In this document: piece after piece, positions 4,458 through 25,070 of the stretch
How positions within the stretch are numbered: the stretch's first letter is position 1
How the letters are laid out: the number at the start of each line of letters is the position of its first letter
Source: a virus
DNA length: 37,624 bases
Strand: one strand, 5' to 3'
Virus record (IMG/VR): IMGVR_UViG_3300033402_000312
Position numbers and translations under genes: made by a program
Notes under the pieces: generated by a model
Told to the model about the DNA's origin: nothing
What the model saw: the letters and a program-made list of their open reading frames with translations, nothing else
Databases searched by the model: none

Positions 4458-4531
4458 TGGCACCCCCGATGGGATTTTTACCCATACACACGACTTTAGA
4501 GGTCGCTGCTCTTCCGTTGAGCTACGGGGGT
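4458..4531 (-). tRNA. amber suppressor tRNA(CUA) #1, Trp/Gln-like body
   Basis: ACCCCCG/CGGGGGT acceptor (A1-U72), G73, CCA; GCGAC-CTCTAAA-GTCGT; T-loop TAAAAAT. Confidence 0.88.
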
Positions 4532-4558: not shown

Positions 4559-4635
4559 TGGAGCGCCCGGTGGGGATCGAACCCACGCAGCACAAGGCTT
4601 TAGGGGCCCCGGCTCTGCCGCTGAGCTACGGGCGC
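4559..4635 (-). tRNA. amber suppressor tRNA(CUA) #2, C33
   Basis: GCGCCCG/CGGGCGC acceptor, U73, CCA; GGGGC-CCCTAAA-GCCTT; T-loop TTCGATC; TATACT -10-like box just upstream. Confidence 0.85.
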
Positions 4636-4709: not shown

Positions 4710-5171
4710 TTACCCAAACCGTTGTTTCAGTTCAAGATATATCCTTTTGTCGCGCTCTTCATCCGCCTTCTTTTCCTCGGCAGCCGCAGCCGCTTTCTTT
4801 TCGGCTTTCTTCTGCTTTGCCTTGAAATAGCGGTCGAGATGCTTCTGTACCTCTTTCGCAATCGCTTCGTCGAGCGCATCGTCCTCAAGCTCAAGCAAGT
4901 GCGACGGGAAGCTCTGCTCGTACGTCGCGTACTCCGGGTGGCAGTGGCAAGCGCCATTGTACTCGTACGAAAGCGTGAACTGGCTTTCGTCGAACGACTC
5001 CAGCTTGTCGAAATCCCTGTGTGTTCGGATTCCGGTCGTCCGGGTGAAGTCCGTGATCTTGAGTCGCTGAAGCTCCTCTTCGAGGGCTTGGTTATAGCGA
5101 CTCGCAACCGCAAACGCTTGCTGGTGAACCCACTGGTACGCCTCTGCCGCTTCCTTAACGCTCTATGTCAT
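4710..5171 (-). CDS. hypothetical protein with in-frame amber at codon 3 (153 aa on read-through); likely paralog of 6128-6577
   Basis: GGAGG SD, then ATG ACA TAG AGC GTT AAG, then an open frame with no ATG/GTG/TTG for 88 codons that joins track ORF 4710-4898. Its C-terminus RIYLELKQRFG resembles QRYLELKSKYEG. Confidence 0.78.
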
Positions 5172-6127: not shown

Positions 6128-6577
6128 TCACGCCGCCCCCTCGTATTTTGACTTCAGTTCGAGGTAGCGCTGGCGCTCGGCTTCCCCCGCTTTGCGCTCC
6201 TTCTCGGCTTCCTCCACCGCCTTGCGCTCAAGGCGCTGGCGCTCGTGCTCGTCGTACGCCTTTTTCTGCGCCTCGATCCAGCCGTCGATGTCGTCGAGCC
6301 AGCCGTTGGGGATGACGATGGAAAGGTAATCGTACTCGTCGCCGCCGCAATACTTGCGTCCCCTGAGCGTGGTGCCGTCCGCCTCGAACTCGTAGGCCTC
6401 GTCCCAGCTTGGCCTGAACTCGTAGCCGGTGCGCGGCACCCACTTGACCCCGCCGTCCTCGCACATCTCCTCCCGGAGAAGCCCGGCGTTCTGGGCTTTC
6501 GCGAAGATTTCCCGCATGGTCTCGTGGAACTGCCCCTGCAACTGCTGAAGCTGCTTGCCCATCTCGCTGATTGTCAT
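6128..6577 (-). CDS. hypothetical protein (149 aa, charged C-terminal helix)
   Basis: AGGAG SD; ATG 6577 overlaps the upstream TGA (ATGA). Confidence 0.8.
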   Translation of the reverse strand: MTISEMGKQLQQLQGQFHETMREIFAKAQNAGLLREEMCEDGGVKWVPRTGYEFRPSWDEAYEFEADGTTLRGRKYCGGDEYDYLSIVIPNGWLDDIDGWIEAQKKAYDEHERQRLERKAVEEAEKERKAGEAERQRYLELKSKYEGAA

Positions 6578-6972
6578 TGTAGCTCTCCTGTCGAAGCAAA
6601 ATTTGCCTGCATGGGCGCAATGGACGCTTGTATTGACGCGTTCGGCTCTTGCCAAAGGCGGTAGTTCGACAGGGCGCGGCGCTGGTGCTGTTCAAGCGGG
6701 ACGGTGGCCACGGCGGACAGGCCCATGTCGAAGTCCGGCTCGTAGAACACCTGGTGGGCGATGTCGTTGGAGCGGAGCTTCTCGACGACGCGGAAAAGCG
6801 CCGCCTTGTCGGGCACGCCTATGACGATGCACGACGGGGTTTCGTCAAGATTTCGGGGTTGCGGCAGACGGCGGGCGACCTCGAAGGTCGCGTGGTTGGA
6901 CTGGACAAGCTGCTGGGCTGCGGTGAGGTCGGTCCTTACGAACACATAAAAATAAGAGTGAACCTATTGCAT
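6574..6972 (-). CDS. PTH2-like peptidyl-tRNA hydrolase with in-frame amber at codon 3 (132 aa on read-through)
   Basis: YFYVFVRTDL...QQLVQSNHA...IVIGVPD...FYEPD...LSAVA follows the PTH2-fold pattern. AGGAGG/AAGGA precede ATG CAA TAG GTT CAC TCT TAT TTT TAT GTG. Confidence 0.78.
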
Positions 6973-7001
6973 GTCCTTTTGAGCCTCCTAGCTCAATACT
7001 G

Positions 7002-7175
7002 CTATAAGCCTCTGAGCAGGCATTTGAAAGTCAAGTTTGTCGGCGGACTTAGCCCTTTCTCTGGTGGTCTGGGAATTCGTCTTGGCCCAAAATAGGGCCT
7101 AAGATAGAGATCGTAGAACACAAGCAACATCGTCGCAAGTGCCATACCCGCCAGAAACCACCCTAGAGCACTCAT
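7002..7175 (-). CDS. small single-pass membrane protein (57 aa)
   Basis: Hydrophobic MSALGWFLAGMALATMLLVFY; ends in TAG. Confidence 0.6.
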   Translation of the reverse strand: MSALGWFLAGMALATMLLVFYDLYLRPYFGPRRIPRPPEKGLSPPTNLTFKCLLRGL

Positions 7176-7199
7176 GCAGTTCCCCCGCAACACAGTCGC

Positions 7200-7228
7200 A
7201 TTGTCCCATAAACCAAGGGTCTTGTCAA
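7200..7228 (-). promoter_or_regulatory. sigma70-type promoter for the operon containing both amber-gated genes
   Basis: TTGACA-17 nt-GACAAT with extended -10 TG. Confidence 0.55.
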
Positions 7229-8343: not shown

Positions 8344-8361
8344 GCCCTATGATACTGCCAG

Positions 8362-8388
8362 AAACAAAAAACCCCGCCGACGCGGGGT
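8362..8388 (-). terminator. intrinsic terminator of the tmRNA gene
   Basis: ACCCCGC-GTCG-GCGGGGT followed by TTTTTGTTT. Confidence 0.88.
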
Positions 8389-8651
8389 CTTTTGCGGTGT
8401 TGAGGATCAGTCCCACCAAGGACTGTGCGTGCAGCTTTTTAGGCCGCAGCCGCAAATGCCATCTCACGAGGAGCGGCAGTTATAGTTTCCATCCTGATTA
8501 ACGAGGGCATGGTGCCTCGGGTCGCTGGCTCCGTCCTCGCATGTCCGCCGTCGAAACCAGTTCACCCCCGAAGTGGTGGAGGTGGGGGGAGTTGGACCCC
8601 CGTCCGAGCAGACTGTCTGGTGCCTTTTGCCCTCGCGGGCTTACGACCATC
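8389..8651 (-). ncRNA. ssrA: circularly permuted (two-piece) tmRNA
   Basis: Acceptor piece first (...GGACGGGGGTCCAACTCCCCCCACCTCCACCA, ending 8574), a 4-nt spacer CTTC, then the coding piece from 8569 (GGGGGTGAACTGGTTTCGACGG). G3:U70 and A73 present. ATAACT-GCC resume context; tag AAPREMAFAAAA* at 8439-8477. Confidence 0.92.
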
Positions 8652-8657
8652 CTACAC

Positions 8658-8687
8658 ATAATACCACGGAAGTCGGTTATCTGTCAA
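8658..8687 (-). promoter_or_regulatory. sigma70-type promoter of tmRNA
   Basis: TTGACA-18 nt-TATTAT with extended -10 TG. Confidence 0.75.
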
Positions 8688-23189: not shown

Positions 23190-23984
23190 TCATGAATTCA
23201 TCTGCAAAGTGAAGCCCAAGGGCGCGGACTGCCCGCTGTAATTAGACACTGTCGCGCTGACCCTCACGATGGTGGGGTCGGTTTGGTCAGTCATCGCCGT
23301 CACGTTCACGATGTCCTTCAAAATCTCCTGCGGGTCTAGGTTCTGCACGGTGCTTTGCGCCTGCTGCACCTTTTGCATGTTGGTCAAGGCGTTGACTACC
23401 GCCGTCTGTATGTCCGTGTCCGTGATCTGAATACCGAGCTTGCGGCCGATGTAGGACTTTACGGCGCAAACAAAAGTCGGGTAGAACGGGCAGCGGGACG
23501 TCAAAACCCATTTCAAGGTTTTCTGTGTCAGCTTGGTGACCTGCGTGACCTCCGCGAACGGGTCGGCCCCAACACCCAGCTTGAAATCGTTAAGGTATCC
23601 CGTGGCGCTGCACTTCAGGCAGTAGTCCTGCACGGACACATAAGAGACCTCAATCAGGGGAAGGACAAGGCGCACGGGGTTGTTGAAGACGACCTTGTAG
23701 AAGATGTTGTCGGTCGTAAGGTCGATGCGGTTCGGGTCGAGCACCACTTGCCAGCCGTAGGTCGGGTCGTCCGAGTAAACTTCCTCCCCGCTGATCCACA
23801 TCTGCACCGCAGAAGCGCCGTTGATCGGGGCACGCTGATTGATGCTCGGCATGCCTGCATAGTTGAGAGTCCTGAAATCGTTTTGATTCACCACATACCG
23901 CTCAAACCACTGGTGGTGGTCGCACGCGCCGATGGGGAGGTTCGTCATCGGGTCGAACATCAAAGTGTTATAGTCGTAAGACAC
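23190..23984 (-). CDS. gp25-like baseplate wedge protein (264 aa)
   Basis: C-terminal KLTQKTLKWVLT...FYP...IGRK...EIL.DI.NV...DPT.VRVSATV pattern; adjacent to the gpJ-like gene. Confidence 0.7.
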   Translation of the reverse strand: MSYDYNTLMFDPMTNLPIGACDHHQWFERYVVNQNDFRTLNYAGMPSINQRAPINGASAVQMWISGEEVYSDDPTYGWQVVLDPNRIDLTTDNIFYKVVFNNPVRLVLPLIEVSYVSVQDYCLKCSATGYLNDFKLGVGADPFAEVTQVTKLTQKTLKWVLTSRCPFYPTFVCAVKSYIGRKLGIQITDTDIQTAVVNALTNMQKVQQAQSTVQNLDPQEILKDIVNVTAMTDQTDPTIVRVSATVSNYSGQSAPLGFTLQMNS

Positions 23985-23990
23985 TTTTTG

Positions 23991-25070
23991 CTATCCTGAA
24001 TACCCTATATCCTTGACATCCACAGTTGATCCTGTTCCGGCAGGGGCGGAGGTCATTTGCTCCCATTCCCAAACGGTTGGGGCATCCAGTTGATGCACAC
24101 GGAACCTCGGCTGCGTCGTTTTTGCCGGATAAACGTCAGTCTGATCGTTCACTAAAGCAGCCTCGTACTCGGGAAGCTGGAAATAGCCGTTTATGCGAGC
24201 AATGAGGTTCTCCACAGTATCGCTGTTGTATTGGGTGACGTTCCCCGCTTGGTACGCCTTCTCTGCTTTATCTTCAGTCTTTTCAATGATATTGCGGAGA
24301 TGGTTCATCGCGAACACGCCCTCGTCCTGCCGCTGAAACTGCTCCTTCATGTAATCCTTGATCTGGTACATGGCAACCATCGGCAACTGGTCATCGCGAT
24401 AGGGATAGTTGAAGTGCCCCTGCGGCCCCGGCTTCCACGGCTCCTTCTTGAAGGTCGGAGCCAATGCCTCGTCGTTCAGCGTGAAGTAAAAATTCTCAAG
24501 CACGCCAGCCGACTTGCGGAGCACGGCGGCGCGAATCTGGAAATGCCGCTGGATCGCGGAAAAATTCTTCTCGCGTTCGCGTACCCACGCCGTGAACGCG
24601 TTGAACTGCGTCAGGGAAAGGTGCCCGAGAAAATTGAAAGGCGGACCGGTGTAGCCGTACACATACCCGTTTTTGGGGGGCGGAGACGCTTGCGGGTTGA
24701 ACGAAACCCGCGTTGCGGAAAACGCTGTGGAACTACCGCCTGGGCCGCCCGGCAGGTATTGGGCGTAAGCCCCATCCCTGTAAGTTGACCACGGGGCGAA
24801 TGAGTACCCCGCCGCCTTGTATATGGCATAAGCAGCTTGGGCATTGGCCAGCGGGTCCATCAACTGTGCCGCTGTGTATTGCGGATGAGCCTGAAGGTTG
24901 ATTTGCCAGAGACCGACCGAGCCTCCAGGCGTCAAGTTCAGGTCTCCGACGGCCGAGGGGTTGCCGCTAGACTCCGCCTCGGCGATTGCCGCAGCGGTGC
25001 TTATGTCCGACCCCTGGAAACCGGCTTGCTGGGCGAGTTGTCTTATCTGGTCCTGTGTCAAACTGCCCAT
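23991..25070 (-). CDS. virion protein with N-terminal lytic transglycosylase (lysozyme-like) domain (359 aa)
   Basis: AAAIAEAESSGNPSA (catalytic Glu), GLWQIN, LMDPLANAQAAYAIY, PWSTY; AGGAG SD; ends in TAG. Confidence 0.85.
   Translation of the reverse strand: MGSLTQDQIRQLAQQAGFQGSDISTAAAIAEAESSGNPSAVGDLNLTPGGSVGLWQINLQAHPQYTAAQLMDPLANAQAAYAIYKAAGYSFAPWSTYRDGAYAQYLPGGPGGSSTAFSATRVSFNPQASPPPKNGYVYGYTGPPFNFLGHLSLTQFNAFTAWVREREKNFSAIQRHFQIRAAVLRKSAGVLENFYFTLNDEALAPTFKKEPWKPGPQGHFNYPYRDDQLPMVAMYQIKDYMKEQFQRQDEGVFAMNHLRNIIEKTEDKAEKAYQAGNVTQYNSDTVENLIARINGYFQLPEYEAALVNDQTDVYPAKTTQPRFRVHQLDAPTVWEWEQMTSAPAGTGSTVDVKDIGYSG

Follow-up and report, generated by a model that had tools for sequence, protein, structure and literature searches.

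Translation of a small phage gene whose product adopts the fold of the PTH2 peptidyl-tRNA hydrolases is likely to be gated by suppressor tRNAs that the phage itself encodes. The gene was found in a virus record of 37,624 nt (IMGVR_UViG_3300033402_000312; hereafter the window, on whose whole length all positions are counted). We document here its anatomy, the conservation of an early in-frame stop codon, the co-variation of this stop with the anticodon of a suppressor tRNA, the PTH2 fold of the product and the use of the standard genetic code by the phage. About 30 distant phages, cultured ones among them, retain the pairing of stop and tRNA, so that synthesis of the enzyme probably requires that the tRNAs override the stop. 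Ribosomes would start at ATG 6972, which is led by a Shine-Dalgarno (SD) sequence, and reach UAG as the third codon; elongation would proceed past it only if insertion of an amino acid by a phage tRNA with the anticodon CUA outpaces termination by release factor 1. The PTH2-fold protein would then be made only with CUA tRNAs that are transcribed, processed, charged and abundant, and in the absence of the suppressor the product would be a mere dipeptide. Gene and tRNA would make up a lock-and-key cassette that soil giant phages and cultured jumbo phages alike have retained and that comprises one or two more gated clients, namely gene 5171..4710 in the window and an HD-fold gene elsewhere.

Anatomy of the gated gene

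The relevant features of the window are the following:
8348 to 8667, minus strand: phage tmRNA gene (ARAGORN), a neighbour conserved among most relatives
7200 to 7228, minus strand: promoter-like site, TTGACA, 17 nt, GACAAT (consensus match only)
6984 to 6989, minus strand: SD sequence AGGAGG, with an 11-nt spacer to ATG 6972
6964 to 6972, minus strand: leader and gate, ATG CAA TAG (TAG = 6966-6964; next base G)
6574 to 6972, minus strand: PTH2-fold gene, 132 codons if read through; annotated start GTG 6945
4710 to 5171, minus strand: second gated gene, GAGGAGG at 5184-5178, ATG ACA TAG (TAG 5165-5163), then 150 codons
4559 to 4635, minus strand: amber-suppressor tRNA, anticodon CUA (ARAGORN); G1-C72, U73, C33
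4458 to 4531, minus strand: amber-suppressor tRNA, anticodon CUA (ARAGORN); A1-U72, G73

The original prediction, made from the sequence of the window, was an SD-led ATG-CAA-TAG followed by an open frame, and this was confirmed by reading the minus strand from 6989 to 6574. ATG 6972-6970, CAA 6969-6967 and the gate TAG 6966-6964, the third codon, are followed by GTT CAC TCT TAT TTT TAT GTG (6945) TTC GTA AGG ACC GAC CTC; in translation this reads VHSYFYVFVRTDL, and the frame stays open until TGA 6576-6574, where the ATG of the following gene overlaps the stop. The sequence upstream of GTG 6945, CACTCTTATTTTTAT, contains neither a purine-rich stretch nor an SD sequence. As had also been predicted, a start at this GTG (V10) would cut into the first beta-strand: strand 1 comprises residues 7-13 in the AlphaFold model described below, and three of these seven residues would be lost. 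In relatives the codon at this position is GTT, GTC, CTT, CTC or ATT and is thus not conserved, which leaves the SD-led ATG 6972 as the true start.

The promoter-like site precedes a small ORF (7193..7002) and the gated gene, and no strong minus-strand terminator was found between this site and the tRNAs. The tRNAs of the window, which include three for Gln and three for Thr besides the two with the anticodon CUA, and the tmRNA are all encoded on the same strand. In most relatives the tmRNA gene is located 1-5 kb upstream of the gated gene. No match was obtained when 8 kb of the window were compared by megablast to 50,697 phage records.

Conservation of the early stop codon

For a comparison with relatives, the DNA of 32 IMG/VR loci (contigs up to 463 kb) was fetched and translated upstream of each match; including cultured or deposited phages, 34 lineages with protein identities of 36-80% were examined. 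An early in-frame stop is present in 31 of them (30 TAG, one TGA), usually at codon 3 with a range from 3 to 13, and in nearly all IMG/VR loci it lies between the ATG and the conserved N-terminus x-P-Y-F-Y-V-F-V-R-Q-D. The absence of the TAG from relatives had been named as one finding that would speak against the original prediction; the TAG is conserved, and this objection therefore falls. The occurrence of a TAG at exactly codon 3 in two genes of the window had been considered unlikely to be due to chance. Chance is indeed excluded, by the retention of the stop in 31 of 34 relatives rather than by statistics on the window alone, and the counts are not those of independent events, since the lineages are related; the position at exactly codon 3 is not general, as the leaders comprise 2-12 codons.

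Two-codon leaders are found in ATG GCA TAG (L001), ATG CTC TAG (L004), ATG CAC TAG (L014, L020, L022) and ATG ACN TAG (L017, L024-26, L028, L029, L032), and longer ones encode MSQH (L002), MKLQLEGL (L003), MRK...L (L005-L009) and MSNEH (L030). Among cultured jumbo phages, the gate is ATG GCA CAA TAG in Pectobacterium phage CBB, ATG TTG TAG in Ralstonia phage RsoM2USA, ATG CTG TAG in Salmonella phage Arash, ATG ACT TAG in Acinetobacter phage ME3 and ATG AAG TAG in Xanthomonas phage XacN1; in the deposited genome LR756511 (595 kb) it is ATG ACT CAC TAG. Such genes have been overlooked because a stop at the gene start causes gene callers to truncate the gene, as annotated for CBB_406 and Arash gp84c, or to skip it, as in RsoM2USA, where it is unannotated. 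When four seemingly ungated database proteins were looked up, three turned out to be gated, the caller having used an ATG or GTG shortly past the stop. The pre-stop codon is for Gln only in the window and in CBB and otherwise for Thr, His, Leu, Ala or Lys, which does not sustain the earlier suggestion that the Gln and Thr codons preceding the two stops of the window wire the gates to the corresponding tRNAs.

The pattern of codon changes indicates that the codons flanking the gate stop are translated. The codon after the stop is one for Ile or for Val, the latter in each of its four forms (GTN), the Ser two codons past the stop is encoded by TCA in L005 and by AGT in L010, and the residues P-Y-F-Y before the GTG of the window are conserved with synonymous codon changes; within the leaders, residues vary synonymously (AAG/AAA, CTC/CTG) and indels comprise whole codons. 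In the relatives, 7-11 nt separate the SD sequence from the leader ATG, and none precedes the stop or the following codon. Among the 31 gated lineages, 30 have a purine (G or A) directly after the gate stop, and the four terminal TAGs of the window are followed by C or T. Purines after UAG are reported to favour suppression, a finding that is said to go back to Bossi in 1983.

A scan of the window and 22 loci (285 kb) for an SD sequence, ATG, 1-12 codons, a stop and at least 80 open codons gave 23 cases with TAG on the coding strand, compared to 5 with TAA and 7 with TGA. In one locus (L026:6001-6222), the PTH2-like frame breaks after ..IDHQVF by a frameshift or an insertion; the gate ATG ACA TAG and a CUA tRNA are retained there despite the broken frame.

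Suppressor tRNAs and their pairing with the gate

The two CUA tRNAs of the window are located on the same strand as the gated gene, 2 kb downstream of it. The tRNA 4559..4635 carries C33 in place of U33, and tRNAs of the 4458..4531 type are also present in L002, L003, L007, L009 and L029. A survey of homologues for an early TAG together with CUA tRNAs, which had been proposed along with the prediction, showed that the records of 28 of the 30 TAG gates also contain a CUA tRNA; overall, 29 of the 31 gated lineages possess a suppressor tRNA with the matching anticodon (that of XacN1 was counted from its paper, PMC5852040). In the metagenomic loci the CUA tRNA is usually encoded 0-2.5 kb downstream of the gated gene on the same strand, and in deposited genomes the distance reaches up to 13 kb.

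The stop type tracks the anticodon of the neighbouring suppressor tRNA, which fits gating by suppression and agrees with the earlier proposal that the gene is switched on by amber suppression. In L027, a complete genome of 143 kb, the gate is ATG CAT TGA, a tRNA with the anticodon UCA is encoded 200 nt past the gene, and no CUA tRNA was found; the closest relative of this UCA tRNA is the tRNA 4559..4635 of the window (79% identity). The pairing of TGA with UCA rests on this one lineage. The PTH2-like gene of phage RaK2 starts MCTEARRYVYILVRKD with no stop and is ungated, and none of the eight RaK2 tRNAs has the anticodon CUA; the same applies to all ten tRNAs of the ungated L085. In L010, an opposite-strand gene for an endonuclease VII (Pfam E=3e-13) separates the TAG leader from the PTH2-like body. 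The relic reads ATG CGT AAG GCA ATC GGC GAT CTG TAG GTC AGT CAG CAG CAA CCA CCG TAC TTC, the body now begins at a new ATG supplied with the inserted gene, and the two CUA tRNAs of the close relative L007 are absent. The inserted gene (L010:5326-6060, in IMGVR_UViG_3300030042_000123) encodes an endonuclease VII/HNH-type protein of 244 aa, and the leader relic lies 680 bp upstream. Evidence counter to gating by tRNAs comes from L016 (89% complete) and L017 (100% complete), which keep the TAG gate with no CUA anticodon among their 27-31 tRNAs.

Many of the phages encode two suppressor bodies side by side, one of the A1-U72/G73 type and one with a GCGCCCG acceptor and A, U or G73, which suggests that UAG could be decoded as either of two amino acids. 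Initiation at the UAG by an initiator-like CUA tRNA was considered and rejected: the SD spacing fits the ATG (7-11 nt; the TAG is 17 nt away), both CUA tRNAs of the window have normal 1:72 pairs, and the anticodon stem that was parsed, that of one of them, lacks three consecutive G-C pairs. A conserved tRNA-like gene past the PTH2-like gene (L016:6320-6395, L017:6323-6398, L027:6319-6396, L084:1811-1886) is characterized by an acceptor ACGCGC.., A73 and an abnormal anticodon loop. It was rejected as a hidden suppressor, its loops (GCAGUCU, GCAGUUU or GGAGGUUGA, the last of 9 nt) being devoid of CUA. At about 6580-6640 of the window, the C-terminal tail NASIQASIAPMQ.. aligns with the 5' half of this tRNA-like gene and looks like a decayed copy. 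In L016 (5983-6645), L017 (5971-6429) and L084 (1390-1905) the PTH2-like frame runs through the downstream tRNA genes with no earlier stop, and RNase P, by cutting at the tRNA, would produce a PTH2-like message lacking a stop codon. Among further tRNAs (L005:8320-8399, L086:2616-2694, L020:6360-6510, L014:7050-7127), there are some with 8-nt anticodon loops containing CUAG or UCUA, which adjoin normal CUA tRNAs, and others of the ochre-like UUA type; near the UUA-type tRNAs of L014 and L020 no convincing TAA-gated genes were found.

Genetic code of the phage

The 26 genes of the window, with about 11,000 codons in all and among them ORFs of 1787, 1699 and 1395 aa, were checked for TAG. Internal TAG codons occur only at codon 3 of 6972..6574 and at codon 3 of 5171..4710, and the genes terminate with TGA (12), TAA (10) or TAG (4). 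Reading TAG as sense increased the ORF coverage by no more than the TGA or TAA controls. A genome-wide scan of CBB for gates yielded 6 candidates with TAG, compared to 10 with TAA and 8 with TGA; those with TAG that look real are the PTH2-like gene, the HD-fold gene and perhaps CBB_461. By these analyses there is no genome-wide recoding of TAG, and the phage uses the standard code. Strong amber suppression should be costly, since two of the four TAG-ending genes of the window have no nearby back-up stop (the next are 96 and 266 codons away). One of them is the 359-aa gene 23991..25070, which ends with TAG followed by C at 23984-23993 on the minus strand; the frame past it is open for 266 codons, with the GTG of the next gene (23190..23984) three codons on and in frame, and amber readthrough at this site would fuse two structural-region proteins.

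Fold and family of the product

The product had been predicted to be PTH2-like. Its match to the Pfam family PTH2 (PF01981; E=0.0047, 17.6 bits) lies below the cut-off of 23 bits, which is exceeded by the fused homologue of XacN1 (25.3 bits). An AlphaFold model (pLDDT 79.5), for which 26 read-through relatives were used, was compared to the PDB by Foldseek, a check suggested with the prediction, and the top 12 matches were all Pth2 (probability 1.0, TM 0.58-0.71), including 2zv3, 3erj, 1q7s (Bit1), 1rlk, 1xty and 1wn2. The predicted structure thereby establishes a Pth2 alpha/beta fold. The family comprises 107 homologous database clusters, most of them called with the start MFVRQD or MRQD.

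The motifs VRxD and Q-S-x-H-A are common to Pth2 and the gated family, but where Pth2 has G-K, the gated family has a two-residue deletion and a Gln in place of that Lys. In an alignment to a single solved hydrolase (24bt_A), the Lys of G-K-K is opposite the Gln of L-A-Q-Q and the Asp of D-A-G opposite Glu78, which is nearly invariant in the gated family. Mutagenesis of the Sulfolobus Pth2 is reported to have identified the Lys and the Asp as catalytic, and one such residue of Pth2 appears not to be conserved in the gated family. The residue-level comparison is thin, since a profile search of solved structures up to E=10 returned no Pth2 chain besides 24bt_A. Hydrolysis of peptidyl-tRNA, and with it the ribosome rescue proposed earlier, is a putative activity of the product.

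Further gated clients

The other gene of the window that had been predicted to carry a TAG at codon 3 (5171..4710) proved to be real: it is SD-led, and its single homologue, in L001, retains ATG ACA TAG. No match of this gene to Pfam or PHROG families was found. An HD-fold family, phrog_14850, adjoins the PTH2-like gene or is fused to a PTH2-like domain (loci L002:7194-7796, L015:6891-7466, L040:3924-4466, L038:3315-3881, L039:2449-3309) and contains invariant His and Asp residues, including an H-D pair at 73-74. Its gates are ATG CTG TAG in L002, ATG ACA TAG in L015 and ATG AAA TCG TAG in RsoM2USA; the gene is also gated in XacN1 and ungated in L014. In CBB, an in-frame TAG interrupts the gene at codon 47, flanked by homologous sequence on either side, and CBB_407 and CBB_408 are one split gene. 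In XacN1, ORF364 is a fusion of the phrog_14850 domain to the PTH2 domain (34% identity, E=2e-34). We regard this HD-fold gene as a second client under suppressor control; the family has an invariant Met, some 10 codons past the gate, that could serve as an alternative start. The best PDB matches of the family's model (pLDDT 93.7) were 3wfo-3wfs, described as a 'tRNA processing enzyme', followed by HD phosphohydrolases; with E only about 0.01 at a probability of 1.0, this likeness is a lead.

A further candidate is seen in CBB (KU574722.1, 308297-308710; L067), where ATG CTA TAG AAT is followed by 134 open codons just past a tRNA-Gly gene. The annotated start of CBB_461 is 27 codons downstream of this ATG CTA TAG, and the region may represent a third gated gene in CBB.

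Alternative explanations

Of the readings that do without a suppressor, one regards ATG-CAA-TAG as a start-stop mini-ORF at which ribosomes terminate and then restart on the next codons, the CUA tRNAs being neighbours for other reasons. The mini-ORF is led by a strong SD sequence, an ATG stands directly past the TAG in L028, L082 and L084, where reinitiation could therefore serve, and ATC, ATT, GTG or CTG does so in several others; the invariant Met of the HD-fold family and the gates of L016 and L017, which have no CUA tRNA, point in the same direction. In most lineages, however, the codon after the stop (GTT, GTC, GTA, GGG, GAT, AAT, AAC or ACC) is no start codon, and the peptide sequence of 8-12-codon leaders is conserved; the pairing of TGA with the UCA tRNA in L027, the absence of CUA tRNAs beside ungated genes and the TAG at codon 47 within a conserved domain in CBB are left unexplained, and we regard reinitiation as improbable. 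The gates of L016 and L017 would equally suit readthrough that is independent of suppressors, brought about by near-cognate tRNAs of host or phage or by scarcity or inactivation of release factor 1, in which case the gate would sense the termination capacity. Minigene work in E. coli has shown that termination is inefficient after very short peptides. This explanation is similarly improbable, given that 29 of 31 gated lineages have a suppressor tRNA of matching anticodon and that the stop type in L027 switches along with the anticodon.

Two simpler readings concern the gene start and the code. An ordinary gene beginning at GTG 6945, with ATG-CAA-TAG upstream by chance, would agree with the choice of the gene callers and with the MFVRQD or MRQD starts of most database proteins, but it is contradicted by the lack of conservation and of an SD sequence at this GTG, by the loss from strand 1, by the conserved P-Y-F-Y ahead of it and by the retention of the stop, and is very unlikely. 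Reassignment of TAG throughout the genome (code 15), with the gated gene as one of many recoded genes, would account for the CUA tRNAs, but hardly for 26 genes with no other internal TAG except that in 5171..4710, for four genes ending in TAG, for the lack of any special gain in coverage or for only 2-3 candidates in the CBB genome, and we give it next to no credence.

Possible roles of suppressor gating

Under the favoured reading, gating by the phage's own suppressor tRNAs, we infer that readthrough does take place and that the tRNAs are functional. As to the purpose, we consider most likely, though at somewhat less than even odds, an AND gate or feed-forward arrangement that tightly blocks synthesis of tRNA-3'-end enzymes as long as the phage's own tRNAs are not yet active. 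The candidate purposes are, by analogy to a synthetic loop (PMC7969014), a leak-proof AND gate or timer, a feedback between an enzyme acting on tRNA ends and the charged suppressor, and a rescue capacity matched to the readthrough burden. In a rather speculative extension, suppressor tRNAs of standard-code giant and jumbo phages would serve not for recoding of the genome but as dedicated keys or sentinels of a small tRNA-3'-end enzyme regulon, the synthesis of which would track the charged, functional state of one non-essential tRNA. This regulon would consist of the PTH2-fold hydrolase and the HD-fold partner, which resembles part of the solved 'tRNA processing enzyme' and is fused to the hydrolase in XacN1; if this is true, the circuit would provide homeostasis or a counter-defence when the host attacks tRNA ends.

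Many standard-code jumbo phages carry amber-suppressor tRNAs with no known client, and the paper on XacN1 (PMC5852040) states that no targets were identified for the suppressors of this phage; the cassette offers a concrete, conserved target. It would represent a natural tRNA-keyed translational AND gate, and cultured phages of easy hosts permit direct tests. In addition, the annotation is corrected for more than 100 database protein clusters starting with MFVRQD or MRQD.

Comparison with known systems

Phage suppressor tRNAs are known from 'code 15' phages, in which TAG is read as Gln and wholesale recoding has been proposed as a regulator (Borges et al., bioRxiv 10.1101/2021.08.26.457843). 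Both these phages and the window encode CUA suppressors for decoding in-frame stops, and the idea of a post-transcriptional switch is common to both. In code-15 phages, however, many late and lysis genes contain many in-frame stops and the coding density collapses under code 11, whereas the window follows the standard code with TAG still serving as terminator, and only 2-3 small genes next to the tRNAs contain an in-frame stop, a single one per gene and nearly always at one of the first 13 codons. A stop-gated PTH2 cassette is not mentioned by Borges et al., and a literature search yielded no paper describing one.

The prfB gene likewise makes the synthesis of a translation factor dependent on decoding of an early in-frame stop (UGA), but it relies on an internal SD sequence to stimulate +1 frameshifting at the stop, and the stop is read by its own product, release factor 2; the gated gene, a translation factor-like one, keeps frame 0 across the stop in all lineages, and its decoder would be a separate tRNA gene. 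The prfB-like autoregulation proposed earlier, with feedback by the gene product, would be hypothetical. The bar minigenes of lambda, which had been cited as an analogy, share the arrangement SD-ATG-NNN-stop with the window but stand alone and act through peptidyl-tRNA drop-off; the stop of the gated gene shares its frame with a conserved protein, and the analogy to a two-codon minigene does not hold for the leaders of 2-12 codons in relatives or the TAG at codon 47 in the CBB partner gene. A further parallel is an engineered one: according to PMC7969014, a suppressor-tRNA feedforward loop in bacteria, consisting of an amber gene and a co-expressed suppressor, forms an AND gate against leak, and the phage cassette would be its natural, conserved counterpart.
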